DNA of 46,713 nt, counting the filler, from Catajapyx aquilonaris (taxonomy: Eukaryota): NCBI GenBank assembly GCA_000934665.2. It is 2 parts of 2 records of this genome, joined end to end, with 100 filler letters (N's around TTAATTAATTAA, not from the genome) between each part and the next. Parts side by side here need not be neighbours in the genome. Positions count along the whole stretch, not along the records: positions 23,258 to 46,713 come from JYFJ02005720.1; 1 more part is not named here. One strand, given 5' to 3'. Made by a program: the position numbers and the translations under genes. Of the stretch, positions 23,258 through 46,713 are shown piece by piece. Under the pieces are notes generated by a model. That model saw nothing but the letters and a program-made list of their open reading frames with translations. It had not been told where the DNA came from and made no database searches. How positions within the stretch are numbered: position 1 is the first letter of the stretch; every line of letters begins with the position of its first letter.

Positions 23258-23264
23258 GTCCACC

Positions 23265-23350
23265 GCAGGCGTAGAAAAACGTGAGCGAAGCGAGCGGTTT
23301 TCTGCGCCTGCGCCCTAGGAAAAGGCGAGCGGAGCGAGGATTTTCCTAGT
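23265..23350 (+). mobile_element. Helitron-like 3' terminus (two hairpins ending in CTAG|T)
   Basis: Stems 23265-23278/23298-23311 and 23315-23323/23341-23349. Both loops carry GAGCG(A/G)AGCGAG. The second stem ends CTAG followed by T. Confidence 0.55.
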
Positions 23351-23378
23351 TCATAATAAAAACCAGCTCATCATAATT

Positions 23379-23626
23379 GGGCGCTCAGAGGAGAAGCGGC
23401 ATATCCCAACCGACCTCCAATTTTGAGATTGTAGTGCTTTTGTACTCTCCTGCCATCTACCTTTCATGTGCTGAAGTCCCAAATTAATTGGGATATGCCA
23501 AAGGTCACATATTCCACTTGTAAAAATTGGTCTGCAATGGAAAGTCCTATTTTCTTGCAACACAAGAAGCTATTTATCTCAAAATGAACTCGGGTTGGGA
23601 TATGCCATTTTTCCTCTGAGCGCCTC
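23379..23626. mobile_element. MITE with ~50-bp TIRs and AATT TSD (Sola-like)
   Basis: G(A)GGCGCTCAGAGGA..GGCATATCCCAACC..TTTTGAGAT occurs inverted at both ends. AATT flanks it at 23375-23378 and 23627-23630. Confidence 0.8.
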
Positions 23627-23669
23627 AATTGCTTTGGCTTCGTTACCTTTTTTTTCTTTTGTAGATATA

Positions 23670-24059
23670 GGGTAAACCAGACAGTTATGGGACACCATAC
23701 AGTAATGAACCCCTTATTATAACTTCGCGCCAAACATTGCTGGGCAACACCCTACACCACGAAAGTGCTGCAAACAACAATAGAGTCCCTACAATTATTA
23801 AATGTCCCATTACTGTCCCAAAGGCGGCCGATAACTGTGAAGAGTGGCCAATAACTATACTTTTGTGACTATTTTGGAACTTTTCATTACCAAAAGTCAC
23901 AGAAAAGGAGAATTTCAAAATTACAGTTGCTCATTGAAATAGAACATTCTGAAGATCAAGAAAAAAATGTAATCAAACTGCAGATGTAATTACTGTGGGT
24001 CATGTGACGATGTGAACTTGGGAAATTTCTTAAGTGACCCATAACTGTATGGTTTACCC
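23670..24059. mobile_element. MITE with TA TSD (Tc1/mariner/pogo-like)
   Basis: 26-bp TIR GGGTAAACCA(G/T)ACAGTTATGGG(A/T)CAC at both ends, flanked by TA. Confidence 0.8.
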
Positions 24060-24099
24060 TACTTTACCAACACTCTGTAGTCACAAGTTCTTTTGCTAC

Positions 24100-26020
24100 C
24101 TAAAATCTTGAGTCTGCCAAAATCGGAGAGCTGAGGTTCACAAATCCACATATCACTGTGACAATGTCATTTGCATGGGTGAGAAGTGTCCAATCCAGCT
24201 TCTTTTGGAATATGGCAAAACATTTCATGCGCTGTATGGCTCTTTCCACATGCACCCTTGCTCGGGCGATCCTCGCTGTCTCCAGGGCTTCCTGCTGACT
24301 CAGTTGCTTCTTTTTTTGCAAAAATGGAGGCTGCACCACACCTATTGCATTTACAGAGCACACATCATTGATCCTGAAGCCCTTATCAACCATCACTTTA
24401 TCAACATATGGCTCCATCTTTTCCACAATACCAGACAATTCAAATATCGCTTTATCGGATGCACGGCCACCATATACCTTGCTACGAGCCACGATGACTC
24501 CTGCAGGACTCACCCCCACCATAACCTTGATAGTGTTGCCTCCATAGTAATGTGAGTAGGTCAGCAACCTGCAGTTGAGGCAGCCTGACTGTTCTACAAA
24601 CACTTCCGTGCAATCCAAAACCACTCTAGTGTTGTTGTAGCATCGGAAGCATTTTGGTAAATTGTTCATGACCTCCTTGGAAGGCCAAGGTATAACGCTA
24701 GTCAAAACCTCTGACAGGGCCTTCAAAGACCTATCAAAAATATAGGTGCACGTGGAGGGACTAACCTGAAATAAAAGGGCCACTGCTGCGAAACTTATCC
24801 CACATTTCAGTTTTGTCATTACCAGTGCTACACGTTCAGCAGTGGATAGAACCTTGCATGCATATGTATCTAACTCATCCACACATTGAGCTATGCATTG
24901 CAAAAGGGAAAATTTAGGAATGCCTGTCAATGTCTGCAAGTCCTTATCTGTTTTCATCATATCCATTACGTTCATCCCCCTAGTAACAGTCTCCAATATA
25001 GTGTTTACTTGAACCTCCTTGTCCTCCGTCTGAATTTCATGATTAACTGTAAGTTCGTGACGAATCTCTTCAATGATTTCAGCTTTCTTCCCAGTATCAC
25101 CCTGAACATCATTACACGGAAAGTCTTCTGTTTGTTGCTGTTCAGTCTCCACTAAATTACAGTCTGATTCAAGTGCAACAAGCTGCTGCAGTGGTGCAGT
25201 GGAGGTTCCCCTTCCTGTCAATAAGGAGAAATCATAGTAATGGCAAGATGAAACTTGGAAAATTCTGCCTTTCAAAGAAAGAAAAGGAACGCCAGTCAAG
25301 GGATTTGATCCTGGGTCCTCTCGATCTGTGAGCATGAATGTTCTGATGTACCACTTCACTCCCCATAGCTCTAAATGATGATATTTTTGAAACTCACCCT
25401 CAAGTGTCTTGGCACGTTGAACAGCTCGGTCTCTTCGATTGCTGACACTTTTCTCATCAACAGGTTTTTCGTGCAACCTTTGCGGGATTTTTTTTGAAGG
25501 CACAGCACCAGGCCTCAGTCTATGGGTTGTCGTCTCAATCCCTGTAAAGGACGGTATGGGCCAGCTATTAGTGATTTTAAAGGGAATGCAGCATTGACAC
25601 TTTGTCCTTTCTACGTTATTATTAGCTCTTGACGTTATGAACGAAACTGTTTTGTGCAAACCCACCATTAGCCCCCAACGATGTGGTGCTTTTACTTAGT
25701 AATGCATGCATCATCTTGCATTATAGTTTCGCTTTTCTATCCTGAAGCTCTACAACATGAGATAAGAAAAACTCACCGGGCAAGTAGTAGTCAGACTCGT
25801 CAAAATGTAGGCTGCAGACGTACATGGTGTTCGTAGCGCGTTTGGCGAGTCGCAACTTGACCTCCCATGTTTTCCGCAGTGGAACTTCTTTCGGAAATAG
25901 GTGCAGCCAAATTCTTTTTGCCCTGTCAAAGGTGGACTTGCATCCGAATACGCAGCAATACCGTCTGCTGCACTTGGATCCCATTAGCGGCCTGCGAGCG
26001 ACACCTTTTCCGGCCGCCAT
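24100..26020 (-). CDS. THAP + DDE_Tnp_4 transposase (ISL2EU/PIF-Harbinger-related), apparently intact, ~500 aa
   Basis: Exons 26020-25777, 25541-25398, 25214-24100. THAP motifs CCVFGC..FP..W..VCSLHF..AVPS. Catalytic motifs LDCTE, YGGRASD, MVDKGF, RVHVERAIQR. Confidence 0.85.
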
Positions 26021-26376
26021 TACTGTTACTCCAGCGATCGCCGCTAGGAGCCGCCCCCTTCACTTGTGCTTGCGAATACGTCAGTAAGTGCAAAAACTTG
26101 AGCTTTCTCTCAACAGTTGGCGTCCAACGCTTCTTTCTGAGGTGGTTTCACCACCTCACCACAATGCTGAAGGCGGGAAATAATTCTCTAAGATGTGGTT
26201 AGACTCTCTAACCACATTTTACCTGTTTATTCCGCACACGGCACACCCACGTGGCAAATAAAACACCATCAACTATGACTATCCAGCACTTCCAACCACA
26301 TCACCATACTCTGTGATTTTTGCGTCCACCATTTTCTGGGTGACCCGAGATCCAAAAACATTTCCAAAAGCCTCTC

Positions 26377-26688
26377 CTATGGTTGCCTGGCTTGAATTTT
26401 TTTTTTTTTTACTTGTGTGGTGTGGCTGCTGCCAGGCGGTAGTCTTCGTTTTCCACGAGAATCACCAGCGTTAATGGTCTCTTGAAACTTGACGAAATGC
26501 CCTGGATGTTTCCTCTTAACATGCGACTTTAAGTTCGTCAGGCTTTCCACATGCCCCCTAATCAAGGTGTGTTTGGTGCACAAGGCACATGTGTAATGTA
26601 GGGCGTTTGACTCTTTGCGCAGATAGACAAAGTAGCCCACCAGGTGCGGCCATGGGTTATCATCCTCAGCAGTGTCAGACGTGATCAA
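26377..26688 (-). mobile_element. BED zinc-finger fragment (hAT transposase N-terminus)
   Basis: PWPHLVGYF..CALC..TNLKSHVKRKHP. Confidence 0.7.
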
Positions 26689-27384
26689 CTGGTCCTACCA
26701 GGAGCGTTTGTAAGCGCCAAGCCCAAGCGTAGGTCTGACCGCAGGCAGTCAGGCACTGAGGCAGAGGCACACCACAGGTCTGACCAGCCGACGCTGATGC
26801 GGTGTTGCCGATGTAACCATTGGGGATAACCAACAACAATCTTAAGTATATTGTCACCGAATGGTGGAACATAAACATAGTGTGTTCATCTCCAGATATC
26901 CTTATTTATTGATCTTCACATTTGCAAGATGGCGGGTAAAAGGAGCAACAGGTAAAGAAAAGAAGTGGCGTGGCCAGTTGCCTCCCCAAGGGGGGGAGGG
27001 GGGGGGGAAGACAAAAGGCCTGGAGGAGAGCAAAGGCTTTTAAGGAGTATCGAACGCAATGCATGATGGGGATTTTCCAGAATGCAGGATGACGTGGGAG
27101 TGACAAGGTCGGGTAGGAAAAACAAGGATACAGTCAATATATACAGTCTGCTAGGAATACAGTTCAGATGAAATGTCTCAGCCGGTTCCGTCACACACCC
27201 CACGGCCAAGCTTCCACTAAACAAAGCAAAGAGGTGGGGGGGGGGGGGTGGAGCCCAGAAAATATGGAGGGAGGATGAAAGAGGAAAAAAACCATAAGAT
27301 AGCCCGGAAATGTCCTCTGGCGGCCATCGCACAACTTAAACTTGAAACATCCATCCAACAACCGACATCCAACATCCAACATCC

Positions 27385-28430
27385 GACAAGATCACTATCG
27401 AACCGTGTTGTACCTCCTCTAGATCCCGATAGTAATAAACGACCGTGAAGATGGTGCAATGGTCGTTATTCCATCGGTATCCTTGGATGGCATCCTGAAC
27501 CACAAAAGAATAGTATTCAGCAAAGTCGCATTGGATCAGAAACTCTCCATCCGCCAGGACGTTCTTGCGTTGGTCCAGATACTCGGCCTGTTGGCGAGCG
27601 ATGAAAGCGTGGGGCTTTAATGCGACGATCTTCTTGCAGAATTCTTCCACGAAGTCATCACTGGAGGCAATCAGCTTCTTCATGGCAGACCTGTTTGATT
27701 CTGTCCACACATGGTACTCAACGGTGTCGATGTCTTCGTCATTCAGCAGGCCCAACAGGTGTTGGTGCAGATGGTCAGGTCCGGGGCAAGACGGGCATTC
27801 GTTGAGGTGGCGCGATGGCGTAGGGTTGCCACATATCAGCAGCTGCATGCACTCACGGTGACCTTTCAGTCTAGAGAACTTGGCCGCTTTGAACATCAAC
27901 TTGACGTTTTCATGATACACACAAACGCACACGCTGTGTGTTCCACTCGAACCTGCCAAACGCAATGTTTTGGCCGCAGCAAGGCCAACGAGGAAAACCC
28001 AATCTTGTGGCTAGGATTTTCATCCTTGAAAAGGGTGTAAAGCTCCTTTAAGTTGCTGCACAACAGCCTCTTCTGCACCTGCACCCGGGTTCCGTCACAT
28101 TGCTTCACGGATATAAAGTCTTTAGCACCTGCCAGCAATTTCCCGTTGACATCTGCATCGTAGAACAATTGGACGGCATTCACAATTTCCTCCTTCAGCT
28201 TCTTCCCTAGCTTGGGATTAGGTGATGCGAGTATTCCATGCGCAGCGACGAGCTTCTTGGCCTTGCGAACCCTTCTCCGCGACGTCGAGAAGAATGCTGC
28301 CACCTGTCTTTGGCTCCAGCTTTTTGGAGCCAAAGTAAGAAGCGTGATCTTCTCTGAAGGCGTCGTCAATGGGTCGTGAAACTTCTCTTGAAGTTGGCGC
28401 AAGACCTCCACACCGCCAAGTTCATTTCCT
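27385..28430 (-). pseudogene. Sola2-like transposase fragment, frameshifted near 27960
   Basis: QKRLLCSNLKELY..KIGFSSLALLRPKHC / HSVCVCVYHEN..DFAEYYSFVVQDAIQGYRW, truncated after IVILSD. Confidence 0.65.
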
Positions 28431-28929
28431 CCGTCTTCCTCTTCTTCGCAGGCGGAGGGTGGTAGGACGCACTGCTACCCTGACTGCAGGAATGTGTGCT
28501 GTCATCTGCCGCGAGGGCTGCTGACGATGGCGCAAGCTGTCTTACTTTCTTACTGCACCTGATGCAAATCTTCCACCCAGCCTGTAGAGATGGCTGATCG
28601 GACTTGTGGAGGCTGCCTCCTCCTCGGCCTTGACATGGTGGCCTCCCGAACCGGAGTGTTAGTGTGCCGCTTACCAATTATGTGGATTTGATGTGTACCG
28701 TCGGATCAAGTGTTTATGCAAACGGACTGGCCCCGGGGCAGACGGACAGCGGGCAGAACACAACCGACTCCCAAGAAGACAAAAAGAACGAGTGACGTCA
28801 CAAAGGGCACAGTCACATCGCGGGTTGAAATAACGGCTACTGGATGTCGCGCTTATCACAAGCTGTTGTTTGTCTAATAAATTATATAGGTGGCAGAACT
28901 GCTACTGGCAAATAATAAATAAATAAAAT

Positions 28930-29265
28930 TAAATCGATGAAATGCATTATTGTGCGGACCGTCCACTTCTTGGTCCTGGCAGACATCATAAAAAAGCTCA
29001 GCATTCTATCACCAAGATCAACCCCGCCCATTTTTGAATTGTAAATGCCAGCAATAGATGGGCGTTGAACTGTAACGTATTCGTGATCCTTTTTGGACCA
29101 TCTGTCACACTGGTCCATAGGTTGGGAATCGATGAAATTGGATGCCATATGCACAGGTTTGTTGTCAAGCCACTTTACAATCACCAGTTCTCCATCTTCC
29201 TGCACCATCTGATCATAGGACCCTCGGACCTCCTTCATATCCTTTAACTGGATTTGTTTTTTCGG
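28930..29265 (-). mobile_element. piggyBac transposase internal fragment
   Basis: RGSYD..VKWLDNKPVHMASN..YNSKMGGVDLGD..RTKKWT. Confidence 0.85.
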
Positions 29266-29520
29266 AAAGGTACACTCCACCACCGACCTTGCCCCACACA
29301 TCATCTTATTATACTGCACTTCATACTGGGTTAGCCGGCCTGTATCGGCAAAGGGTTTCATGAGCCATGGTAGGAGGGGATATGCCCCATCGCCTATGAT
29401 GTACATGGGGACAGATTCATTGGTTGCAGTACCGGTACAAAAAGATTGAGTCGGGAACAGTTTACCTTTCAAGTATCTCTTGTACAGAGATGACTCTGTG
29501 AACACCCTACGTTCACGTCC
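29266..29520 (-). mobile_element. Harbinger (HARBI1-like) transposase catalytic fragment
   Basis: RVFTESSLY..IIGDGAYPLLPWLMKPF..YN..ARSVVECTF. Confidence 0.85.
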
Positions 29521-29585
29521 CAAATACTGCCATCCGCTCCAACTAGTCCGGGCCCTAAGCGCAAAAATCAGGCCTAACCTTGCAC

Positions 29586-29870
29586 TTTGTGATAAGAAGG
29601 TGCCACTTGGCACATATGTTCCTTAGGCCTATAGGAGCAATTCCAGAGTTGCAGGCAACTGATCGGCCCCTTAGGTCACGAGTTATGCGGTGTTGCCAAC
29701 ATGCCCTGGGATGACCTGAGCGTTTTTAACGTTGAATTTTGTGATAAGAAGGTGCCGCTTGGCACATATGTTCCCTAGGCCTGTAGGAGTCGTTTGAGAC
29801 ATGGCGGCACTTGATCGGCTCCTTAGGTCAGGAGTTATGCGGTGTTGCCAACCTGGTCCTGGACCCAAGT
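29586..29870. repeat. Diverged ~152-bp direct repeat, about 2 copies
   Basis: GTGATAAGAAGGTGCC..GGCACATATGTTCC..GAGTTATGCGGTGTTGCCAAC begins at 29589 and again at 29741. Confidence 0.85.
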
Positions 29871-30074
29871 GTTTTGAACAATTTTTAACGTTGCCTTTTG
29901 GGATTTAAAACTGTGAGGACCGTAGTTCGGTACCGTACACCTGGCTAGCTCATGGGTCCAAATACTGGGTTCAGTAAATGATACTCGGGCTGGTATAACA
30001 ACAGCACGTCTATTGCTCTGAGGTTACAGCCAAGCAGGAGAGGAGTATAAGGGTAAGAGGGCGGAGCTCAGTAG

Positions 30075-30173
30075 CAGCGTTGCCAACCTGACGCGACCTT
30101 ACCGTACCACGATAGTCAAAATTACCGTACCACGATAGTCAAAATTACCGTATTTCGCCTAAAATTACCGTAC
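30075..30173. repeat. TIR-like CAGCGTTGCCAAC followed by TTACCGTA subterminal repeats
   Basis: A 23-bp unit TTACCGTACCACGATAGTCAAAA occurs twice, plus two further TTACCGTA copies. Confidence 0.6.
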
Positions 30174-30299
30174 ATTATAAAACCTGACATTTTGTGAATG
30201 AAACATTAGGGGGAAATATTAGATACCCGTAAATATGTACTCCATAATGTATTCCTACACGTTCCTGCCAAAGTTCTTTGTTTTGAACCATAACCCAAA

Positions 30300-30395
30300 G
30301 ATCTTGTATCCAATCTGATTCTGGCACACTGCAGATGTGGCGTTAGTCAAGTCGTCCGGGTCCCATTGCTGCTCATTCACTCCTTTTTTTGGCAT
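30300..30395 (-). mobile_element. pogo/CENP-B-like transposase N-terminal HTH fragment
   Basis: MPKKG..QQWDPDDLTNATSAV..IGY resembles a psq-type HTH start. Confidence 0.5.
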
Positions 30396-31163
30396 CTTGA
30401 TTACTGTATTATGTGATAAATTGCAATCAGTGACACTGACTTTCAACAAGTGATGTGTTCCTAATGTGGAATACTATTCCACATTAGGCACACAGTGCAT
30501 GTCATTACTGTGATTAATTTTTTCATGCATAATTAAAATACTCAGTTGTAATTTTCAACTGCACTGATTCTCCAGACTTCGCTGGTGAGATTGGTGACGG
30601 CAGTTTTGAGCTGGGTAATACTTACTCGTTGGTCGATTGTGATAGCTTGTTGATAGGTATTGTATGCTGGACAATGAACGATTCCGATTCGGAATTTTGC
30701 TGCCCGTCAGAGATGTCTGTCTCCCTACAATGAAATAACATTTTTACTCAAGTAAGTAAATCGAGCAACGTTACTGAAAATTTTGATTGATGAATGAAAT
30801 GCTCACGCCTACGTCTACAAATAAGTGGGAACCCATCATCACCGATCGTGTCCTGCTCCCATTGCATGGAGTTGTTCCTTTTTTTACCTTTATGAAACCC
30901 TTTAAATTTTATTTTTAGTTTTATGGCACATTTTTTGAAGCAAGTGTTTATGGCCATGTCTGTGATGATGCATATGATCCTACATGACAGTCCTCTCCAC
31001 ATTATGAGTTAAATGAATGCCAGTTCCTGGATAATGCTACAATTTCCTAGAATGTACTACGTACATGGCATATACTTTTGCATATAAACTGGTATGAAAT
31101 GCTCGTGGATGGTGGCCTGTGACTGTCCACTCAAACCTGGTCACAATTATAAATGGGACTCAC

Positions 31164-31864
31164 CTCCATGTTTGTCCTAGTAGGACGTGGCGTCACTACA
31201 TCTTTCAGAAAGTGGAGTTGCTCAAAGCACCACCACTGCTTCTTGTGCCCACCCTCAGCCCCACTCTTCCCCTTCTGCCGACGGAGCTCCTCGTTATACT
31301 GGCTCCGGAGGTTCGCCAGCTTGTTCTTGATAGCCGGCCCGAGGACGCCTGGCCTCACCGCTTGCATAGCTGCAATCATCTCCTCCATCGCCACGTTACG
31401 CTTATTTACATCGTGGTACTCCTTGCTCTTGCTGTCCCACAATACTGGACGGTCCCTCCAGAGGTCCACTAATGAAACGGTATCTTCATGCGGCCAGTAC
31501 GCCATGGTGGCAGGTAAAAGGGTGGAAAGGTGCGGGAAAAGGGGGGAGGTGGGGGGAAAAGGACAAAGCACGCGGCAACTGGCAGAGTGGCAGGTCAGGC
31601 AGGGAGGGAAGATGAGGCCTTGTGAGGCCCGGAGTGAGGCTGCAGAAATCACTCTCCGGATTGGCTATCGGGAGTCACGTGCTGTGACGTATGTAAGAGG
31701 CGAAAGAGAAAAGTAGAAATATTCCAACGTTTCTCGTGTCCCTCTTGCGAGGACTTGCGAGGACTCGCGAGGCGTAGCAGATTCCGTCTCGACCAGGTCT
31801 CGACGTTCAAGATTTCTCGCGTACGAGGACTCGCATACGAGGAACTCGCACGTCCATACCGGCC
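31164..31864 (-). mobile_element. Harbinger terminus with the first exon of a MADF (Myb/SANT-like) ORF
   Basis: On the minus strand TAA|GGCCGGTATGGACG starts at 31864, followed by subterminal CTCGC repeats. Exon 31505-31164 reads MAYW..LWRDRPVLWD..LRSQY..WWCFEQLHFL and ends at a GTGAGT donor. Confidence 0.8.
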
Positions 31865-31976
31865 TTAATTCACAGTGACTCTTTCTTTATGTGGCCTAGT
31901 GGCTAGTGTTTCCATTGCATGCATGATCATAAATACATTTCCATGCTGCGGGTACATTGCATGTTGGTTACTATAC

Positions 31977-32470
31977 CTGAGTGTGACCGCCAACCTCTCC
32001 GCTGCGGAAATCGGCCTTCTCATCACTGTCGTCTGCTTGGAGATGAGAGGCTCCACACGTCTGACGAGGTCGTCAAACTGCTCCGGGGTCAGCCTTGTGT
32101 AGGTTTTAAAAGACTCTCGATCCCGCATTGCCTCATCTTGACCAAGAGGGTGTGGAAATCGCCTTCCTTCTGACGATCGATGTAAATCTCCTTCACCCAC
32201 CACCTCCGTGGTCGACGCTTCTCTCTGCGTCTAGCCCGACGGAGTCGGGCGTTGACCATCATCAGGAGGACGATCTGTTGCATTTGCAGCAGCAACTCAT
32301 CTTCGTCGGCGGCCTCCATCTTTGCCTGCCCACGGGATTGGAGCTTGGCTACTACCGGCCCACTTCCATAAGTACGAACGTTAGCAAAGTGGCCGTGTGG
32401 AGTGTAGGGACTTGCGTTAGGAAAGTTGCGTAAAGTACAAACGTTAGGAAAGTCATCGTGTAAACGGGCC
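31977..32470 (-). mobile_element. Harbinger terminus with the first transposase exon (frameshifted)
   Basis: GGCCCGTTTACACG terminus at 32470. Exon 32319-31977 reads RRWWV..GDFHTL / FKTYTRLTPEQFDDLV..MRRPISAAERLAVTLR. Confidence 0.8.
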
Positions 32471-32475
32471 TTCAC

Positions 32476-33274
32476 TTGTTATCCAGCGCCTCCAGCAGCT
32501 GGCTCTGCTGGGAGTGTCTGTGAGTTTTTGTTGGGTTCCGGGGCACGCGGGCATTCGGGGCAACGAGTTGGCGGACGAGGCAGCTCGCACCGCCTCCTCC
32601 CCCCGTGCCCAGGGCTGCGTGCCCCACCCGGATCTGCGGCAGGTGACGAGGGAAAGGCTGCTGGGCGAGTGGCAGGTCCTCTGGGACGGGGAGACGGGGA
32701 ACAAGCTCCACGGGGTGAAGCCGGTCCCCTCCCCCTGGGGGTCCTCCTCCCGTCCCGACAGGAGGGAGGAGGTCGTTCTGGCCAGGCTCAGGATGGGGCA
32801 CACCCGCCTCACCCACGGCCACCTCCTCAGGGGCGGGGACGGCCCCCCTCTCTGCGGCCACTGCCACCAGGCCCCTTCTCTGACGGTCCAGCACATGCTG
32901 CTGGACTGTCCTGCATTGCACCAACTCCGCCTAGACACCGGTCTCCTGCGGGCGGGAGACCCCGCTCCTTCCACCCTCGCTCATCTGCTGTCCGACTCTG
33001 CGGACCCCACTGTTATGTTGGCTCTCTTTTCTTTTTTGAAAAGAACCAACATGTATAGAGATCTATAACCGTTGCATTTTAAAAATATACTCGAAGCGTT
33101 TTGTTTCACTTGTTACACTCTATTGAAATTTTATAGTCACTACTGTAATAAATGCTCATTTAACGTTGGGGTAGGGGTGGTATTGCCTGCCCTCCCCTAC
33201 AACGTCACAGGTGCTTGGCGCAGTATAGCCATTGCTGCTGTTGCGCCAATAAACCATTACTTAATCAATCAATC
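32476..33274 (+). mobile_element. 5'-truncated I-group LINE: RNase H end, C-terminal CCHC knuckle, 3' UTR and (AATC)n tail
   Basis: FCWVPGHAGIRGNELADEAA..RLRMGHTRLTH..CGHC..TVQHMLLDC, stop at 33068. GGCGCA..TGCGCC stem, AATAAA and (AATC)3 at 33263-33274. Confidence 0.88.
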
Positions 33275-33539
33275 CTCACAAAACGCAATGGCGCCTGCAA
33301 AATATCCCCCCCCCCCTCCAAAAAAAAAAATGCACTCTCTAATGGATGTTATTTTTACCATTAAGTTAATTATCTTGTGAAACAGGCATATTGTACCTTC
33401 TGCTCCTATTTCTGCAGGTGGATCTGTATTTCTTACTTCCGAAGACCCAGTAGCCACATTGAGGTCAGAGCCACTGAAATGCTTCTGTCACGTATCGGTT
33501 GAAAACGGATTTACTCCCAGCTTTGAGATTTTACCCACT

Positions 33540-34030: not shown

Positions 34031-34099
34031 TTCAGGCCTTTTTCTCTTCACCTGATGGGCTTCTATTTCTGTTCTCGATTCGAGTAATCAATTGGTTCA

Positions 34100-34335: not shown

Positions 34336-34339
34336 AGCT

Positions 34340-36243: not shown

Positions 36244-36800
36244 TTAGCATGTAGTGTTAGCACGTGACATTGCGTCTTCCAATTCTTGATAAAAGGTTGT
36301 AGTTTTGTGTGATGGTGGTGAGGCTCCTACAATAGAATGAAGGTCCACTCTCAGGGAGGCATCTTTCCTCTTCTTTCTAATCACAATATTGCCCTTGTTG
36401 GCCACAACCTCCATCTCCATATCAAGCCTGTGGATACGCTGGAGAAGTCCATTGTTACTGAAGTTCACTTTCGTGTAGAAGATGCTGGTCATGCTTCTTA
36501 TGGCACGAAACAGTGATTCACACTGTTGTGAACCAAACCCTGGTGCATGAAACTTTTCCAAAGCGCCCTGGGCTGCAAACAGGACATACATCAAAATGAG
36601 GCTGTGGGCGTTGATCTCAATGCAAAAATATTATGCATTGGTGGAAATGAAGTTCTTGCATATGGTGCAGTGTGATGCAGACTTCAAGAAGCTCGCCCAC
36701 GATCTCAGAATGCAAACTGCCGTCCAGATTAATTCTATTCTCTTCAGGGCCAATATAGGTTTTCCACTGAAGGAATCCAGTACGTTAGCTTGAGTGTCAT
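36244..36800 (-). mobile_element. P-element-related transposase C-terminal fragment
   Basis: NFISTNA*YFCIEINAHSLI..FGSQQCESLFRAIRSM. The family call is by resemblance to the P/THAP9 SQD.LE..F..IR motif. Confidence 0.5.
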
Positions 36801-36959
36801 ATCCAGTTCAACACTCACGCCTAAAGTTAGAAACAAACACGGTAATGAACTTATGTACTCTCTGATGTTCTGAATAGTCGTCTGGTATAGCTGAGGCAGA
36901 TAGTTCTTTCGGAGTGTCGACTTGAGTAGTAACACTCTGAAGTTTGGTCGCTCCCTGAA

Positions 36960-37464
36960 CCTTGACTAGGCCCCGGAAGCGCATCGTCTGGGAGCTAGCG
37001 GTCGCGCTGCACGGGATGCCGCTAACCTCCCTTACTGCGCAGAGTTTCTCCGCTTCTAACTCCGTGGCCACTTTGACCCGGAGATCGCCCGACTTCAGGA
37101 CCCACAACTGAATGGGCTTCACGTTGTATTGGCCAATCGATCGTGCCAGGAGGTTCGGGTTTGTTCGCCCGAAGCTGTCCTCCTTGTTTCGGGGCTTGAA
37201 CGTTACCACCGTTCTTACCCCTTTGTGGCGTTCCTGGGGCACGGCTTGGTCTGGTGTCTTGGCCAGAGTCAGTTTGGCAGCCATGTGGCATACCTTTTTG
37301 GGGGCGATCTGTTGGAGGGGGTGGCTCCCTTCCTCCGTGTCACTTTCAGAGAATGATCGATCGCGTTTTGATAGCCGTGTTGTGCTATCCATAGCTTCCG
37401 CTGGGGTTTCCAGCGGGAGCTCACCATCGTTCCCGGGGGCTGCTGCACCATTGTGGGCCGCCAT
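36960..37464 (-). mobile_element. LINE ORF1 (I-group gag-like) 5' fragment
   Basis: NPNLLARSI..LKSGDLRVKV..AEKL..IPCSAT..RGLV, truncated before the zinc knuckles. Confidence 0.65.
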
Positions 37465-38087
37465 GGGTTACGATTTTGAGGTCAAACAATCAGTGTTAAG
37501 AGTCAAGTTGTCAATAATGAGTCAACAACCACTCATCAGTGACAAATTTCCCCCGTTGGCCCTACTTCCTACGCCAAGGGGAGTGCTGTCTGACGTTTCC
37601 CGCTTGTTGTTGGTTGGTCAACAATGAGCCAACAACCAATCATCAGTGACGAACTTCCCTTCAGAGAGTCACTTTCTTAACGTTTTCCGCTAAGTCATCC
37701 ATCTTGGTCTGTGGGGAGATGAGGAGGACTGCAGCTCTCTCCAGGCTGGCGGCCGTTTATTTATACGGAAATGGGCGCATGCGCTGTACAACATTGACAA
37801 AGTGGGAGGAGTCAGGAGGAGACATGCACAACAGAGTGAGCTGTTTGAAAAAAGGCGTAGATGGGGGATGACGTGATGTGGAGGTTGCCAGATGAAGCGG
37901 GGCGGTAGACTCAAACATAAAGAAATTAGATGGATAAAATATCTAACTACAATACTAAAATGGAGGGGTGGGTTTATGAGTCTTTACATAAGCATGGAGA
38001 GTAGAAAGCCCATACTCACTTACAGTTTCATTTACCTCTCTGACCAACACCTTGTCAATGTCAATTCACTTGTTTTGATGTAACACC

Positions 38088-38900
38088 ACACATATTGCAG
38101 GCCTGAAATGAAGCAGTGTCAGTGATAGCATGACAGGTTCTACCGTCAATCATTTTCACTCACAATTTATGCTTCACGCGCAAAGGTGCACAAAAATCCC
38201 GATCCTCGGTGACAGTTTCCTTAAGGGCTTCAATCTGCTGATCCATGGCTGCCTTTTCCTTCTTTATGATCTCCGTCGTCTCAGGTGCAAACTCTAACTT
38301 TACAGGTCTACAAAATCTGGTTGATGATGGCCGGGGTTTTTGCCAGACGATAACATTTGGGCCACCATCTCCCGGTGAAGCGTATAGTTGGAGAGGTACA
38401 AGGCAAGTCATGAATAAACTACTATCAAACATATCTGGATTGTCACTTCGCTGCTTATAGAGAGAATGGCCACTGCTGCCATCGCACCCCCATTTTGAAA
38501 TCAAATTTAAGTTGGTCAGCAAAGCAGGGGAAATGGTTATTACTACATCCTTTTGGAGAGTAACAATACGACTTAGTCAAGTCCAGCAACGCTTGCAGTG
38601 AAATCTCTGCTTTGGTTTCAGTGATCACTACAGACTCTGTTGGTGGGTAGCACTCCTCTTTTGCTTGCCTCACCTTTTTGTATGATGGGTATATATCTGC
38701 ACCCCTTGACTTCCCTTCTACCCGAAAAGTCTGATAGGACCCTTTAGATAAGTCTGTGTGTAACATGAGTTAGAGTGCCTCCTGAGCCGTGTAAGGTCTG
38801 ATACCCTCACTCTGTTGCGCAGAAGTCCAAGCCTCGTTGATCTTCTTTGTACGCTTTGGTGTACTGATAAGTCCCTCCTTCACCAGCTTGGCCTCTTCCG
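38088..38900 (-). pseudogene. Transib transposase fragment
   Basis: IYPSYKKVRQAKEECYP..LQALLD / KWGCDGSSGHSLYKQ..LVPL..PSSTRFCRP..MIDG..CNMC, with frameshifts. Confidence 0.9.
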
Positions 38901-39003
38901 GTCTTCCCGCGGCACCCATACGCAGGACTGAATAGTCCTAAATTTCCTGAAGGAGAAAAGACAGGAATGCCAATGGTTTTATTCTGAACTGGAATTAATA
39001 CCC

Positions 39004-39380
39004 TTATCTCCGTAGGTCCCCGGTGAGGTGGTCCGTATAGATTTCCCTGGACTATCGAATGGCGTCGCTGACGCACAGCCTCCGGAGCGTCGTCAGATAG
39101 GTCCTGCTGCAGAAGCGCCGCAAGACCCGGTCGTTGCTTGGGTCCCAGGAGCCCACCACTATCGCCTCCACCGTTACACGACGGAAGCGCTGCTGGAGTG
39201 TGTTTGCCAGTGGAGCATACTTAACCTCCTTTCTTTCTCGAGCCTCCCAGAGGGCCTCCGGGCGGTTGTCGAAGGGGACGGTAACATCGATAATGATGGC
39301 TGTGTCACGCCCCTGAGTGAGCAGCAGGTCCGGGCGGAGAGGGCAACCCGGCGTCACCTGCTGATTCGTCCTCTCCACCG
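39004..39380 (-). mobile_element. Restriction-like-endonuclease non-LTR retrotransposon 3' end (NeSL/Utopia-like)
   Basis: LRPDLLL..IDVTVPFDN..KEVKYAPLA..GSWDPSN..LCVSDAIR*SREIYTDHLTG. Confidence 0.8.
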
Positions 39381-39399
39381 TGAACTTGGAGCCTGCTGC

Positions 39400-39742
39400 T
39401 TGCTGGATGCTCTATAATTGAGGTGTATACCTTTCACTCTCATGCACACCTTCTCCTCCCCCAAGCTATTTTTCACAATATAGCCATAATTTTTAGGCCC
39501 GCCGGAGCAAAACTAAGCTACAGATGCTTCCGGACCATATTCCTGGAGCTCGCTGGTTAGCTCACCAAGGTAGTCACCAGTTGGTAGAGGCGTATCTGCA
39601 GCTCTTGTTACATATATTATGGAATCTGTATCGCAGTACAGCGCCCTCTCCTGCACAGTTCCAAAAATTCGTACAGTTTCAGGCGTGCTTGGGCAGTTGT
39701 GAAAGCGCCGATAATGACGTTGGTGGAAGGGTGGGATAGCTT
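39400..39742 (-). mobile_element. Polinton/Maverick protein-primed DNA polymerase B fragment
   Basis: TNVIIGAFTTAQARLKLY / LYCDTDSIIY..GDYLGELTSEL..SGGPKNYGY..VKGI, with one frameshift and one stop. Confidence 0.88.
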
Positions 39743-40681
39743 TTCACAAACTTCGCATCCCCAATCTCGCCCTGTGCCGATTCCCACTGTTGGCGAGTTA
39801 TCGTAATGACACAACCAAGTGTCACCTGTAAGGTATAACAGAAATCGGTGTCACATTGCATGTTAGTAGATTTACATTCATGAATGATGAATTTCATTGC
39901 TGAATGAATATGTTCACATAAAACAGCAAATGGAATTAGGTTACTGGAATTGTTCTAATCATTCAATATAAGACAGAAGTACGCGTATCATTTGCTCATC
40001 ACTTACAGAGCTATTCAATTTGTTAAGCTACTAAAATCAAAAAGTTACTGTAAAATGCAAAAATTTAAGAAATCTCACTCAGAATCATACTAATACTCGC
40101 ATTTCAGATGATCATGGAACAAATACCCTCATACTGATCTGCCATGTGTGTACTTAATGCATTAAACATCCTAATGTTGTTATCAGACCTCATGTCTCTT
40201 GAAAGTGCAACTAAAGCTGGAAGTTAATATTCAACTTTTTTTTTTTACATACTCCTAAAATTTGAAATGTAATATTCCTCTAACACCATAAAATTCAAAC
40301 ACCCCTTGTGAAGGAATCTGATTATAATTATGTGATTCTATGTCATGTGTGGCAAAGCCATCATTTCACTTGTTGGACTAATACTGTATATAGAGAAAAA
40401 TCACTAGTCATACTGACTGAAGACAGGCAGAAGAAATCCAGATTAGTATCATCCATACCTTCTCATCTTCAATTGTCACAAAATCATACCTGCGTCTCCA
40501 GATGCTACTGCACTTGTAGCATGTAGCATGTAGCATCGACGCCAGCGCCACGCGCGGTTATTACCGCGACTGTGGAAAAGCGGGAAATCAAAATGGGATA
40601 ACTAATGCTGAAAATTTAAATGAAAATCCCGCAATCCCCAGCTGGAACAACAGACATTTAAAAACGGAGTATAACTTTTCA

Positions 40682-40870
40682 GGTTTTATTGTTACATTTA
40701 TGCATTAATATGCAAAAACGGTTTTATTGTTACATTTATGCATTATATGCAAAAAAGGTTTTATTGTTACATTTATGCATTAATATGCAAAAAAGGTTTT
40801 AATGTTACATTTATGCATTAATATGCAAAAAAGGTTTTATTGTTACATTTATGCATTAATATGCAAAAAA
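40682..40870. repeat. 38-bp tandem repeat, 5 copies, inside the MULE
   Basis: GGTTTTATTGTTACATTTATGCATTAATATGCAAAAAA starts at 40682, 40720, 40757, 40795 and 40833. Confidence 0.95.
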
Positions 40871-41066
40871 ATGTAAAAATGTTGATTTAACTGCACTTGC
40901 CAACTTAAACCCCAGCAAAAAATTTGATTGCTCTTTAAACCTCGCAGGGAATGAATTGTAGCTACGAAGTAAAATATAAGAGTGCAGTTAATAAGAGTGC
41001 AGTAAAATGAGAGTGCAATCAAATGGATATATTACAAGGCGAGTTTTTGATTTTCATTAAGTGATT

Positions 41067-42863
41067 TTAAAGATACCCATGATCACCAACACCAGAACAT
41101 GTAATGTTCAAGACTTCCTCACTGCTGCCAGCAATGAGTGTCTTCAGGACACTCTTTTCAGTGCTCGTGGGCTTCTTCAATCCCATCCGTTTCTGCTGGG
41201 GTTTTTTCTTTGTTGAGTGTAAAGTTGAAAGAAGCCTTCTCTGAGTCTGTGGTTTCTTGTTTGAAGGCTCCCTCGCTGCCTCGTCAGTCATTTTGAATCC
41301 ACGTGATGCTTCAGAGCTCTTGAGATGCTGCACCATTGCATTGCTCATCCTCTTGATGGTTGACACACTTTCCGGGGGCAGTGCATCGATGGAGCCCAGG
41401 ACAGCATTGAAATTTGCTTTTATGATGCTTATCGATTGCTGATTCTCATCTAGTGCTTCTGGCTCAGCGGAGAAAAGTAACACTTTTTGGTCCATATCCT
41501 TTGGATCTGGGAAATGTGTTGGTAACTCCTGCTGGATTTGTAAGCAGTGAATTATGACGGCATGAACATGCTTGCAAATTGTGGAGTGCACCATTGCATC
41601 AGTGCAGGAGCATGTATACATATGCATGCACACTGAACATGCCAAACATTTCTCACTACAGTCGCCTTCAGGTTTTATGCATTTGTCTTGCACTTTACGT
41701 ACATTGTAAGTGTCCTGCACATGAAGTTTTTTTTGTGAACTGACATACCATGACATCCCATCCTCACTGCATGTCACGTCCTCCCTAGGAATACGTTCTG
41801 CCTTCCTGTGCCGATCTCTGATGCCCTTCATAGTTATACTGGCGGTTTTTTTAAATGGTCCTTATGGCGTAGTCCTGCACCTTATCTCTGGTCATCTTCA
41901 TGAGAGCATCAATGCATTTATCCACTCGCTTTATCTTTTTTGATTGGAAATATATGTGCTTCAGAACCCTATGCATGGCTTCCAGGCGCATATTGGTGCT
42001 GATTCCACAGTCTTTTCTGTAGCAATAAGCCCACATGTGAACTCTGCATCCATAATGTGACTGGAAGTACTTGCCAAATTGTTTTGTTTCAGGGTTTTGC
42101 AGAAACATGCATATCACCTGGGACAGGAATTCTTCCAAGGAATTTTCTTCCCTCTCCTCCAGCAGGAGTCTGACAAATTGGTAAGCAGATGCTTTAACGA
42201 CTTCTCCTCCTGTTACCAATTTGCCAATATTCTCCCGCCAGTTCCTGTCCACATGCCAAGAACAAAGAAGGTGTTTTGGGCTGTGATTCATGACTTGCCT
42301 CCATGCATTATAATACGCTGGCGCATCATCAGACATAAATACTTTTGATTCTATTGTTTTGCCCACTTTGTTCCTTACAGCAGAGAAGAAAACCTCCATG
42401 GCTCCCTGGTTGCATTTATTACTTATACAATATGCCACGGGAAACCCTCTTCCCATATCATCCACTACCAGCAATGTAGTTAGTAGAAAATCATAGGCGT
42501 TAGTTCCATGTGTGCTGTCTACACACATTCTATCATCACCGAATCTCACCATCATGTCCTTCTGTGCTTGTGTCATCACCACAAGCATAAAGTCTTCATT
42601 TTCAAGTGGCACATCTTCATCCATAGTGTGCTGATTCTTGAAGATTAGGACAGGAGAATCTTCTCCTAGGCTTTCTGAACTCTTCACCCACATTGCATCA
42701 TTTTCATGTAGCTTTTCTTTGCACAGATGAAAGTCTCGGATGACATTATGCAATGTCTTTCTCTGAGTCATGCTCATGACATCACATATAGTTCCTTGCT
42801 GAGACACCTTCTCCCTGATATCATCCAGAATTTTCCCTAATGCAATTCCCTGGCGAATTTTAC
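41067..42863 (-). pseudogene. MULE transposase with SWIM zinc finger, frameshifted near 41850
   Basis: CVDSTHGTNAYDF..GFPVAY..FMSDDA..LCSWHVDRNW..TNMRLEAMHRVLK / YTCSCTD..ICKHVHAV. Confidence 0.9.
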
Positions 42864-43469
42864 CTGAAATAGGAATACAGTAAACCATTATGGCTAATGC
42901 TCATAAAATTCACCCTATAACTATTAGGGGTAGTATGGCCAACAATCTGGCCCTCCCCTCCACATCAGTTTGGAACCGAAAAAAAGGCCGGCGTGGCTTA
43001 CTTACTCGATATATTGTTGCAGAAATAGCCCGCTCAGCATGCCGCCATTGATGGTTCTGCCCAACCAACATGGCCGCCGCGAAAAAAAAAGGTAAACAAA
43101 TACGTCACGGCTAAAAGGTCCATACGCCCCACCTCCCACCTGACTGGACTAGGTTACAGTTGCGGTAATAACCGCGCGTGGCGCTGGCGTCGATGCTACA
43201 TGCTACAAGTGCAGTAGCATCTGGAGACGCAGGTCAAAATCATCAGCTGGTGGCAATGGTAGCATAGCAGTTGTAGCTGGAGGGTGGGGGTCACCTGTCG
43301 GCACGTGCTCGGCACCAGGCGCGTAGCTGGAAAATTCTTAAGGGGGGGGGGGGGGNTGATCGGTTTTCTGCACTAAGCTGTTTATTATTAAGCAGTTACT
43401 TTCGAACCGTTATTTTAGTAGTTATCAAAAATAATAACTTAATATGAGGCCGAACAGAAAGCACGATAA

Positions 43470-43630: not shown

Positions 43631-44034
43631 TCATCACTGATGCTGTTCAGGGATTCACTCCAGAGATGGGCAGTATATTATATACAAATATACATATATA
43701 CATTTGTATATTGTATATATGTATATGTCGTGAGCCAATTGTGCGCGCTGGCCCAATAGTCCGCGAGTGAATTGGCAGCCGGCCAAGAGTTCTGCCCCTC
43801 CAAGCCACCACCATCACCACTATTAGGCAGTTCACCTGCCAACGCAGGGGGCACATTAGCAGCCACCGATTTCACCTCAGGTGCACTTCACTTTTTTCTT
43901 GTGTGGGTCCCGTCCCCATCCGACTCGACCCTGTTTGACTTGGACAGCATTGGCTCCGGGGGCGACACGGAAGGAGGCCTCTTGTTCCTGCCAGGTTCCG
44001 CCCCGGCACTGGTCCGCCCCCCCCCCCCCCCCNC

Positions 44035-44684
44035 CGGCCCTCAATTCTCAACTTATTGTCCCGCCTCAGCGTGGCGGCCTTTCCCTCTTCACGTGCAGAC
44101 CTTAGATACGGAAGCAGCTGCCTGCGAGCCTCTCTGGTTTCCGGAGAGAAGTCTTCTGACAGAGCCATAGGCGTATTCTTCAACTTAAACGAGTTGCGTA
44201 ACACTGCCTCCTTGTCCTTGAAATACGTGCACTTTGCTATTATTGGTCGCACATTTCCTGGGGCCATACGGGCTAGTCTGTGACATCTTTCAAAGGGGAG
44301 ACGGTAATCAGAAGGAAATACCTCCTTCCACGCCAAAAACTTCCTCACCTTCTCCTCCGTTTCGCCCCATGGTTCCTGCACATCCGGCCCCAGACCAAAT
44401 AACAGGATATTCTTGCGCCTACCCCTATCTTCCATATCTATAAGGCGAGCTTCCAGTTCCAGATTCTTTGACACCAACACCGTCGCCTTGCCTGCCAGTT
44501 CCGTGACCTCCGCCTTAAGAGAGTCCAATGCACTATTCTGTTCGTCCAACTTCTTCTCGAGAAGACTCGTAAGTGTTCCAGTTAGCTTGTCCGCCACCAC
44601 TTGGACCGCCACTTGTGTCTGCTTGCTTAGCTTCTCCTCTAAACCGGCCAAGAGAGTAACCATCTCCTCCTTCGAGACCCCCAT
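44035..44684 (-). mobile_element. LINE ORF1 (L1-type coiled-coil/RRM/CTD, as carried by L2/CR1-group elements)
   Basis: MEDRGRRKNILLFGL..ERCHRL..RPIIAK..SEDFSPETREARRQL. Confidence 0.82.
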
Positions 44685-44784
44685 TTGGCAAGTTAACCAG
44701 TGAACGACCCAGCACGTGTATCGATCGGCCTTGGCAGGAGCCCAATTTCTGCACGTCCACTCAGCTCTGGCAGTGAACCTCCCA

Positions 44785-45500
44785 GAGGACTGTAATAAAC
44801 CCAACGGTTTATTACGCTCCGTTTTAGTCAATTGACACAATATATTGACAGCTACGGACATATTGCAACACGTCTCTTTTCTGACCAATCCAGGTGAAAA
44901 GATGCTTTATAGCGTCCTATGCCCGCCAAAATGGCCACCTAGTGCCGTATCGTGATAAGCGTGCACAATTTTTTCGCGCATGCCCTTTGGAACCACAATC
45001 TTAAAAGGGTTATACCCCAGAGAAGCAGCGCCTTTTGCCTCCGGCAAAAACTCGGCTATTAACCCAGAATTGTTGATCAGGTACATTTTAAGGTCCACCT
45101 TAAGCCTCGCTCTAGACTTTCCGTCTAACTCCGCGTCGCATGACCCTTCCAGGTAATCACGCAACGCCCTGAGATCGGCGTCAGCTAATTGGTGTTCCCT
45201 CAATTCCTTGAGATCAACTTTTCCGGTTTCCACCTGGTCACCTGAAACAGGTGCCGTGTCATCGGCGGCTAAAACAGCCCCTGCCAGATTATCGTACCCC
45301 CTACTAGGAGACCCTTCCTCGTGTACTACGCCAGCCCCCTGTGACTTTTTGCCACTCGTACACATTTGTTCCGCTCCATCTGGCACACCCGCACGGTCAA
45401 ACATCCGAGAAAGACAGTCAGCGGCTACGTTAGGGTGACCTTGAACATGCTTGATTTGCAAATCAAATCCTTGCAAGTTCATTGACCATCGGCCCATTGG
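44785..45500 (-). mobile_element. Ty3/gypsy pol fragment (RNase H end to integrase H2C2 finger)
   Basis: RWSMNLQGFDLQIKHVQGHPNVAADCLSR..IVVPK..HDTALGGHFG / FTWIG..YVRSC..CQ. Confidence 0.85.
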
Positions 45501-45529
45501 GTAGGGCCCTATCAACGGGGCCAGGATGG

Positions 45530-45702
45530 TTGGCGTCGGCTGCATGCTGGTCGGCTGCTGGAGGTGCAGCGGTGCCTGGGCCGGCCACGACAGGCTGGTC
45601 GGATGCAGGAGGTGGAGCGGTGCGTGGGGCGGCCACGTGGCCAGGCTGGTCGGGTTCAGGTGGAGCGGGACCTGGGGCGGCCACGGGGCCAGGCTGGGGT
45701 CC
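45530..45702. repeat. GC-rich ~45-48-bp minisatellite (WP..PLHL..PTSL units on the minus strand)
   Basis: Three to four diverged copies of AGGTGGAGCGG..GGCGGCCACG..CAGGCTGGTCGG. Confidence 0.7.
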
Positions 45703-45901
45703 ATGACACACACGTAGTCGTCAGAATGACCACCCTCTTATGCTGGCACCCAAGCTACAATGAGCGTCTTCCCGTCTTCTGACTCATCGTCCCGCGCGAT
45801 GCCGCGCGCGCCCTTCCCCCCAGAACTCCCCGCCTGCCATCCCCGCCTTCCCCCACTGGTTGGGGCCCCGCCACGAGCATAGAAACCAGAGGGACAGAGA
45901 G

Positions 45902-46230
45902 CTAGGGGGTGGGAGGGGCATCATTTTCAATCAGCTTCAAACTCAGCTTCATCCTTATTGACGAATCCGAAGTGCTGCTAGAATTTAGGTTACACTGAAT
46001 GCCGATACTTGATGTTGGTTCCTGCAGAAACCCATCAGAAGGTACCTCCCCATCTTCTGTAGTAATTTCTGTCTCCGCTGTGATTTCCAGAAGGACATGT
46101 GCCAGGTCCATGTGTTTATCCTTCTTCCTGCCTCTTACCGCTGTCCTAACTTCCCGAGCGGTAACCACTGGCTCTGGTTGGAACGCGAATACTGATGGAA
46201 CAGCTTCTCGCTTCAGTCTGCGCCTCCTGA
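45902..46230 (-). mobile_element. THAP C-terminal exon fragment (transposase N-terminal region)
   Basis: An acceptor precedes RRRRLKREAVPSVFAF, followed later by IGIQCNL. Confidence 0.6.
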
Positions 46231-46713
46231 CTACAGGAAATGCATTATTATTCATTGAAACCATTATACTGACATGCACTAGTGTCCTCTGATCCAAAGA
46301 AGATGAATCTGAACTGTGGCTCGGGAGCTTATGAAAATGGCTTAAGTCTGCCAAAATTTCAAGGTTAAATTTAAGAACGCACCTAAGCAAAGCTGGCCCC
46401 AGGAAAATTACCGGTACCATTCAATAATCACCCCTCATTTTTATTTTGTCGTTTTTATTAACTGCCCATGTGTGTAAATTTACTTTTCGGTTTTTTTGGC
46501 CACATTTTGTGAGGTTCAGCTTTAAATTGAGTGCCAAGGACAAGAATGATAAGAGCAGCCTACTGAACAGTGACTCTTGGTAAAATATAGTCAATAAGTG
46601 ATATTTCTTACCTGGGCTATAGTACCTACAAGACCTAGTATGCCAACCGGCCTATGCCTCCAATGGAAAGCTCGCCCCCCAAAAAAGTTGAAAATCCGCC
46701 AGGTGGCACTGCG

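Follow-up and report, generated by a model that had tools for sequence, protein, structure and literature searches.

What kind of locus gathers the remains of many unrelated transposons and keeps nearly all of them on one strand? The question is raised by a 23,456-nt piece of the genome of Catajapyx aquilonaris (assembly GCA_000934665.2, record JYFJ02005720.1), which lies at positions 23258-46713 of the window, by which we mean the whole 46,713-nt stretch of DNA that was analyzed. An initial annotation of this array piece had described a strand-polarized archive of transposon fragments and proposed a uni-strand Piwi-interacting RNA (piRNA) cluster dominated by DNA transposons. The structural part of that description, a gene-free one-way array of many unrelated superfamilies, mostly cut-and-paste, was borne out by our analysis. 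With about as much doubt as conviction, we suggest that the array piece belongs to a transposon trap within a long plus-strand transcription unit, most likely a polarized uni-strand piRNA cluster.

The array piece is bounded on the left by a linker and on the right by the window edge. The linker (23158-23257, no strand) is artificial, carries stops in all six frames and has the layout C-N44-TTAATTAATTAA-N44-G; we take it as the joint between two separately assembled pieces of unrelated DNA. Features and statistics that cross 23158-23257 are meaningless because the linker is artificial and the two pieces are unrelated, and position 23258, which had been given as the left edge of the locus, is the first base after the linker and not a biological start.

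No host gene was found in the array piece, as had been claimed, within the scope of one short piece of 23,456 nt bounded by linker and window edge. Pfam scans were run on 150 of the 151 open reading frames (ORFs) of at least 76 aa in the window (the one omitted lies at 46424-46651, minus strand), including 84 from the array piece (39 plus, 45 minus), on a further 118 ORFs of 52-75 aa from the array piece (70 plus, 48 minus), and on six-frame translations of both strands with stops read through as X. Across the ORF and read-through scans of the 23,456 nt no non-transposon Pfam family appeared above cut-off on either strand. The 118 short ORFs gave no Pfam family of transposable elements (TEs), and a Pfam search at E ≤ 1 on 52 ORFs brought no gain over the scan of ORFs of at least 76 aa. 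No tRNA gene or Rfam family was found in the array piece.

TE protein homology supported by the search tools covered approximately 8.8 kb of the 23.5 kb (about 38% of the array piece), which agrees with the dense tiling, mostly by cut-and-paste elements, that had been described. The coding loci found at E ≤ 1e-3, together with one associated zinc-finger ORF, were as follows.

24103-25695, minus: PIF/Harbinger-type transposase in an intact 531-codon ORF (HTH_Tnp_4, E 7e-9; DDE_Tnp_4, E 1e-38, profile positions 1-158 of 158)
25724-26059, minus: THAP zinc-finger ORF directly upstream of the 531-codon ORF, in another frame (THAP, E 1.8e-10)
27228-28468, minus: internal stretch (roughly residues 110-603 of some 760, one frameshift; extents from tblastn) of an unnamed animal protein family
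28924-29268, minus: C-terminal part of a piggyBac transposase (DDE_Tnp_1_7, E 1.6e-10, profile positions 242-345 of 349)
29266-29508, minus: second PIF/Harbinger-type DDE fragment (DDE_Tnp_4, E 2.5e-5, 24.4 bits, cut-off 24.8, profile positions 57-124 of 158)
31134-31664, minus: MADF/Myb-SANT DNA-binding ORF (MADF_DNA_bdg, E 8.5e-19), which we take to be an accessory protein of the type that Harbinger elements carry
32478-33275, plus: 5'-truncated 3' part of a high-copy long interspersed nuclear element (LINE), with the end of RNase H, the C-terminal region and a 3' untranslated region (UTR) ending in AATC repeats
35076-35809, minus: ZBED5/Buster-like hAT transposase, central portion (roughly residues 168-395 of some 660), whose homologues carry PF14291 and PF05699
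36250-36888, minus: P-element-superfamily transposase fragment (query residues 987-1193, E to 2.5e-25; homologues P0105 and P0142 with Tnp_P_element and PHD)
37982-38985, minus: Transib (RAG1-like) transposase fragment in several frames (PDB 6pqn, E 1.2e-21)
39001-39483, minus: C-terminal part, about 140 residues, of a non-LTR (long terminal repeat) retrotransposon ORF2 (query residues 137-293, best E 1.3e-94)
40488-43234, minus: complete Mutator-like element (MULE) with terminal inverted repeats (TIRs), target-site duplication (TSD) and transposase domains
44910-45737, minus: Ty3/gypsy Pol fragment ending in an integrase H2C2 zinc finger at 44910-44993 (Integrase_H2C2, E 3.5e-5, 24.3 bits, cut-off 25.5)

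Several of these assignments came from homologues. ORF 27339-28010 in the unnamed family had 37 relatives in insects and hagfish (best E 6e-64, 49% identity), all uncharacterized and without a Pfam domain; the family may correspond to the Sola2 piece of the initial annotation. The hAT ORF 35435-35953 had 52 relatives (best E 2.7e-31, 67% identity). The read-through frame 36247-39846 (minus) was searched against 1.8 billion representatives, with Pfam then run on 16 hits and followed by tblastn; its 2450 hits (E ≤ 1e-3) fell into three distinct ranges of the query. A large protein search with the read-through 875-residue frame 33702-36326 (minus) found nothing. The Transib fragment showed Transib/RAG1-type core homology over residues 92-193 of the 497 in PDB 6pqn (it is a fragment only), and its homologue P0148 had a weak RAG1 match. 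Homologues of the ORF2 piece were proteins of 900-1600 aa matched at their C-termini, with RVT_1 in P0039, P0044 and P0053, and the PDB match of the 39001-39483 region to R2 protein was weak (E 0.68). The RNase_H match of the LINE (32448-33065, plus) had E 1.4e-6 and 29 bits, above cut-off. In the gypsy fragment an ADCLSR-type motif was seen by eye upstream of the finger.

The remnants showed strong strand polarity. At E ≤ 1e-3, 11 TE coding loci lay on the minus strand (two PIF/Harbinger-type, the Sola2-like unnamed family, piggyBac, MADF, hAT, P-like, Transib, the non-LTR reverse-transcriptase C-terminus, MULE and the gypsy integrase) and one on the plus strand, the 3' part of the high-copy LINE (two-sided binomial p = 0.0063). 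Addition of weak hits, with E between 1e-3 and 1e-2 and below Pfam cut-offs, gave 13 minus and 2 plus (p = 0.0074), and six-frame read-through Pfam alone gave 7 loci minus and 1 plus. The initial annotation had counted 22 of 23 coding fragments on the minus strand with p of about 6e-6. A strong bias persisted when orientations were recounted by homology search, at the lower counts of 11 to 1 or 13 to 2; the 23 fragments could not all be verified, and the earlier probability was overstated.

As an alignment-free control we compared ORF lengths with 200 local-composition shuffles; the outcome matched the locus counts in direction and was the stronger signal. Minus-strand ORFs of at least 100 aa numbered 30 against 7.0 ± 2.5 in shuffles (maximum 13), whereas the plus strand showed a modest excess, 17 against 10.2 ± 2.8. 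For ORFs of at least 150 aa the observed and shuffled values were 15 and 0.7 (minus) and 5 and 1.2 (plus). Frames opposite real coding sequence and the LINE would be expected to give such a plus-strand excess. The binomial significance is only approximate because the fragments are not strictly independent, several of them abutting or sharing a frame, and the true significance lies somewhere between the binomial and ORF-shuffle measures. The polarity is real but weaker than first claimed.

The remnants are also diverse. About ten unrelated superfamilies were supported by the tools, against the at least 14 unrelated groups of the initial annotation. With 239 homologues used in tblastn, five families were tested and each was found at one place only, so that the absence of any family present twice held for close copies and failed at the superfamily level, where DDE_Tnp_4 occurred at two loci and hAT-type hits at three. 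The element called ISL2EU-like proved to be a transposase (24103-25695), by Pfam of PIF/Harbinger type, and the NeSL-like piece was recovered as a non-LTR ORF2 C-terminus (39001-39483), assigned to that level. In the Harbinger group, two DDE_Tnp_4 loci and the MADF ORF were recovered by tools, and an N-terminus at 31868-32478 was seen by eye only; in the hAT group, three hAT-type loci were detected, two of them weak, the further hAT C-termini being seen by eye only. No match to pogo or CACTA was found in the array piece, and the Polinton was not confirmed by tools. Tiling by pieces of 0.1-2 kb described most of the array, the complete MULE (40488-43234) and the intact 531-codon ORF excepted.

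Neighboring fragments abut tightly. A gap of 15 nt separates the Transib fragment from the non-LTR C-terminus; in ORF 28885-29622 (minus, 246 codons) the Harbinger-type DDE fragment runs in frame into the piggyBac C-terminal fragment; and within ORF 43875-44906 the gypsy integrase finger passes into ORF1-like sequence with no stop. Deletions have shaped the array, since fragments abut within tens of bases or share one open frame, and the array is a patchwork shaped by insertions and deletions.

How fragments enter the locus is indicated by the MULE. Elements of this class are marked by long TIRs, a 9-bp TSD and a MULE transposase domain, and all three were found at 40488-43234. The TIRs, of about 86 nt, lie at 40488-40573 and 43156-43234 (aligned arms of 42 and 52 nt, 98%-100% alike), and a perfect 9-bp TSD, CAAAATCAT, flanks the element at 40479-40487 and 43235-43243. 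The transposase is divided between two ORFs (41854-42900 and 41070-41861; MULE, E 6.8e-12; ZSWIM1-3_RNaseH-like, 1.7e-9), which a single additional base at 41853, absent from other copies in the genome, has split. Because this element is complete with a perfect TSD, ordinary insertions enter the locus, and because it has TIRs and that TSD the polarity does not arise from a capture mechanism alone. Cut-and-paste insertion is not known to fix orientation, so the common direction of the remnants suggests that copies were filtered once they had inserted.

The ages of the elements were assessed from contigs of three DNA runs, which are not independent, as a single sample (probably the source of the assembly itself) supplied all of them. 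The polarized remnants mostly lay near the baseline summed word depth of about 20-60, and most therefore have few or no copies at least 95% alike elsewhere. The LINE had a depth of 1660-3060, with loose ends at 32477 in all three runs. The clear wrong-way element thus comes from a family that is young and abundant, whereas most right-way remnants are old and single, an age structure which fits a post-insertion filter acting with time. The two young insertions, one each way (MULE minus, LINE plus), prove nothing alone.

From the dense one-way array, the ordinary insertion and this age structure we infer a plus-strand transcription unit, piRNA production from it and a selective filter. Transposons of every class would insert in either orientation. 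Copies whose sense strand matches the precursor would be lost over time, as sources of useless sense piRNAs with terminators and splice sites of their own, while antisense copies would be retained and then worn by deletions into abutting fragments. The precursor would be a source of antisense piRNAs against a broad cross-section of the mobilome, mainly cut-and-paste elements. Selection after insertion would be needed because the bias covers cut-and-paste elements, and a trap rather than ordinary intergenic DNA is suggested because about 38% of the piece is coding remnants of about ten superfamilies, each present once.

In the flamenco (flam)-like clusters of Drosophila, TEs accumulate in a single orientation, the one that opposes transcription (PMC10643416), and the flam array is interpreted as a record of earlier invasions; the present locus resembles them in being gene-poor and packed with TE fragments, most of them in one orientation. 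In flam-like clusters, however, Gypsy LTR elements alone account for the strand bias, and lengths are 227-1085 kb (PMC10643416), whereas the 23.5 kb visible here, known from sequence alone, hold one gypsy fragment among remnants that are mostly cut-and-paste (Harbinger-type, piggyBac, hAT, P, Transib, MULE). Mosquito core piRNA clusters are unidirectional and made by read-through from an upstream gene, and viral fragments of non-retroviral kind are overwhelmingly antisense in the clusters of Aedes (10.1101/2022.08.22.504762). One-way trapping of foreign sequence would be common to both, but the polarized cargo of the mosquito clusters is viral, and the term 'DNA transposon' is absent from that text (10.1101/2022.08.22.504762). 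The upstream co-oriented gene that defines the mosquito clusters would fall in upstream DNA outside the array piece, which starts at 23258. Among non-dipterans, uni-strand clusters of Rhodnius prolixus likewise contain DNA transposons (Mariner-like), together with LINE and Ty3 elements; unlike the strict polarity seen here, TEs there lie on both strands and are explicitly described as unpolarized (PMC11614815).

In the papers cited, cluster polarity is reported for Gypsy elements in Drosophila (PMC10643416) and viral fragments in mosquitoes (10.1101/2022.08.22.504762) only. Our literature search, over texts accessible in part, found no uni-strand cluster polarized mainly for DNA transposons, although one might still be in print. 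If plus-strand piRNAs arise here, selection for antisense insertions would prove able to polarize a cluster against DNA transposons to the degree seen in flamenco against Gypsy, and such loci would be detectable from sequence alone outside Drosophila, as FlaHMM finds flam-like clusters within it (PMC11400887). Modeling puts the total size of effective clusters at 0.2-3% (PMC7259680). We suggest more tentatively, with doubt somewhat the heavier, that the genome carries a set of strictly polarized uni-strand piRNA clusters whose polarity reaches cut-and-paste DNA transposons of many superfamilies, the array piece being one of them. On that reading the flamenco principle (an antisense-only trap and primary piRNAs, with no need of ping-pong) would extend from Gypsy retroviruses to the whole mobilome, in contrast to the unpolarized uni-strand clusters of Rhodnius.

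A number of observations weigh against a piRNA cluster. The verified count of 11 to 1 is modest (12 loci). Gypsy enrichment and Gypsy strand bias, both features of flam-like clusters, were not seen, the one Gypsy element being the Pol/integrase fragment at 44910-45737, whereas the bias of flam-like clusters is a Gypsy-only one; the locus lacks that defining feature and may still work like flam. Strict polarity is not simply how uni-strand clusters look outside Drosophila, because those of Rhodnius are unpolarized (PMC11614815). A complete MULE and an intact 531-codon transposase ORF lie inside what is supposed to be a graveyard. The piece ends at linker and window edge, which leaves promoter, upstream gene and exons outside the view. 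Counts of poly(A) signals showed depletion on neither strand, the putative precursor strand included (AATAAA, 13 plus and 15 minus; ATTAAA, 7 plus and 3 minus), and splice-donor hexamers on that strand gave no informative signal.

The poly(A) result counts equally against the main rival, since both transcription-based readings predict depletion. On that rival the array piece would lie in a very long intron, 3' UTR or long noncoding RNA body of a plus-strand host gene, where selection against sense insertions leaves antisense copies that have no piRNA role. We regard it as unlikely, although it survives best of the alternatives. Its exons could sit outside the array piece, whose edge is the linker at 23158-23257, and the other window piece has plus-strand genes, though in unrelated DNA. 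In mammalian introns LINEs and LTR elements show an antisense bias, strongest near exons and attributed to purifying selection, in a study that leaves DNA transposons out (PMC3088655). The likeness is that a transcription unit filters insertions by orientation and yields an antisense excess; here, however, the bias reaches the cut-and-paste elements that the intronic study omitted (PMC3088655). Inside the array piece, six-frame and ORF Pfam scans found no plus-strand coding match besides the LINE and a weak zf-Tnp_2. About 38% of the piece is coding sequence of autonomous transposons from about ten superfamilies, against none in the other window piece. The near-total bias, 11 to 1 or 13 to 2, is also far stronger than the intronic bias generally known at genome scale. 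Were the locus a long intron after all, a host gene would here be filtering insertions by orientation to an unusual degree.

The shared orientation could instead be a historical accident in a neutral transposon nest, in which a few large events (nested insertions, non-inverting deletions) carried fragments together. The small number of verified loci (12) would suit this account, as would the tight abutment and shared frames noted above, at ORF 28885-29622 and at the 15-nt Transib/non-LTR junction. We nevertheless think it improbable, as each of about ten unrelated superfamilies would need a separate entry and the MULE is a separate recent insertion in the same direction.

Fragments that are mostly coding, co-oriented and tightly abutting, with two junctions keeping an open frame (ORFs 28885-29622 and 43875-44906), might also have been joined as RNA, by template switching between transposon mRNAs and integration of the chimeric cDNA, or captured one-way, for example by a Helitron. 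The complete MULE (TIRs, TSD) and units resembling MITEs (miniature transposable elements with inverted repeats) are, however, DNA-level insertions, and Pfam ORF and six-frame scans found no Helitron Rep/helicase and no reverse-transcriptase domain in the array piece. At 23 kb the array is far longer than known chimeric retrocopies. An origin by RNA joining or capture is accordingly very hard to credit.

The contigs covered 30 of 30 bins over 20 kb in all three DNA runs, and two were identical to the window at 24596-26254 (1659 nt) and 27782-28764, with 0 differences each. They are short (longest 1662 nt, none over more than 1-2 junctions), and the long-range order of fragments is beyond their reach; alternative joints were few (one run, for instance, joined 27195 to 34168 at depth 40.6). 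That the array was created by misassembly, as a repeat contig, collapsed or chimeric, with an order and orientation absent from the genome, finds some room in these short unitigs and alternative joints but is highly implausible given full coverage in three runs (of one shared sample), mostly low even depth and contigs without differences. A synthetic concatenation of repeat consensus sequences was considered and rejected, genomic contigs being identical to the array at low even depth.

Weaker coding matches, stretches recognized by eye and candidate leads in the array piece were as follows.

26380-26694, minus: weak BED zinc finger, a hAT-type N-terminus (zf-BED, E 0.0052, 17.2 bits, cut-off 20.6)
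31638-31865, plus: weak C-terminal zinc finger of piggyBac type, perhaps another fragment on the plus strand (zf-Tnp_2, E 0.0027, 18.7 bits, cut-off 24)
31868-32478: Harbinger-like N-terminus, motif seen by eye only
36104-36256, minus: weak hAT C-terminal dimerization piece (Dimer_Tnp_hAT, E 0.0011, 19.2 bits, cut-off 21.4)
36811-37467, minus: 219-codon ORF, LINE gag-like candidate, a lead only (Atlas matches to hypothetical proteins of arthropods at 0.92; 14% of one cluster carries PRE_C2HC)
39516-39743, minus: Polinton-type DNA polymerase B-like stretch with a YCDTDS motif, by eye only, without Pfam or PDB support
43875-44906, minus: 344-codon ORF, of which the first 40 or so codons continue the gypsy integrase finger and the rest is a LINE ORF1/FP25K-like candidate, a lead only (Atlas 0.93; Baculo_FP_2nd in 60%-63% of two clusters; weak L1 ORF1p match, E 0.17)
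45905-46420: THAP-like end, by eye only, with no relevant PDB match

The hAT dimerization piece is a separate remnant because it lies upstream of the hAT middle piece. BLASTP of 31868-32230 against the 531-aa transposase showed no similarity, and PDB searches of ORF 36811-37467, the hAT ORF and the P-like ORF gave no relevant match.

The 531-codon ORF had a contig depth of 19-31, with no near-identical second copy in the DNA runs, and a search around it found no TIRs. The THAP ORF at 25724-26059 probably belongs to the same element. At single-copy depth the two ORFs could be the last surviving copy of that element or a domesticated gene within the array.

The following repeats were also observed.

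23380-24061, no strand: two MITE-like units with TIRs at 23380-23411/23593-23624 (32 nt, 91%) and 23668-23695/24034-24061 (28 nt, 93%)
29575-29855, no strand: very high-copy repeat with two 129-nt direct copies, 84% alike

The MITE-like units are high copy (summed word depth 1488-2350), and a further run, X5, of unrecorded kind, matched these units only (23283-24061), with unlike flanks. Bin 29261-29927, over the repeat at 29575-29855, had a depth of 5852-10611, and depth was elevated in bin 42601-43257 (378-900). Inside the MULE, a 38-nt tandem repeat (approximately 5 copies, 40681-40906) lies between the left TIR and the transposase ORFs.

The left window piece (1-23157) carries plus-strand host genes by Pfam, two MFS/sugar-transporter genes and one HMGL-like gene; as it is a separate piece, they say nothing on the neighborhood of the array. 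The MFS/sugar-transporter copies (2035-3010 and 8332-9903, plus) match each other at 82% over 50 nt close to their 3' ends (2915-2964 and 9878-9927) and look like tandem paralogues. The HMGL-like gene (HMG-CoA lyase type, 13504-15038, plus) has four Pfam-matching segments in different frames placed almost end to end, a layout which suggests very short introns or a frameshifted retrocopy. From 17927 to the end of the left piece at 23157 (plus) there are about ten ORFs of 80-190 codons without a Pfam family, which may represent an unrecognized gene or element.

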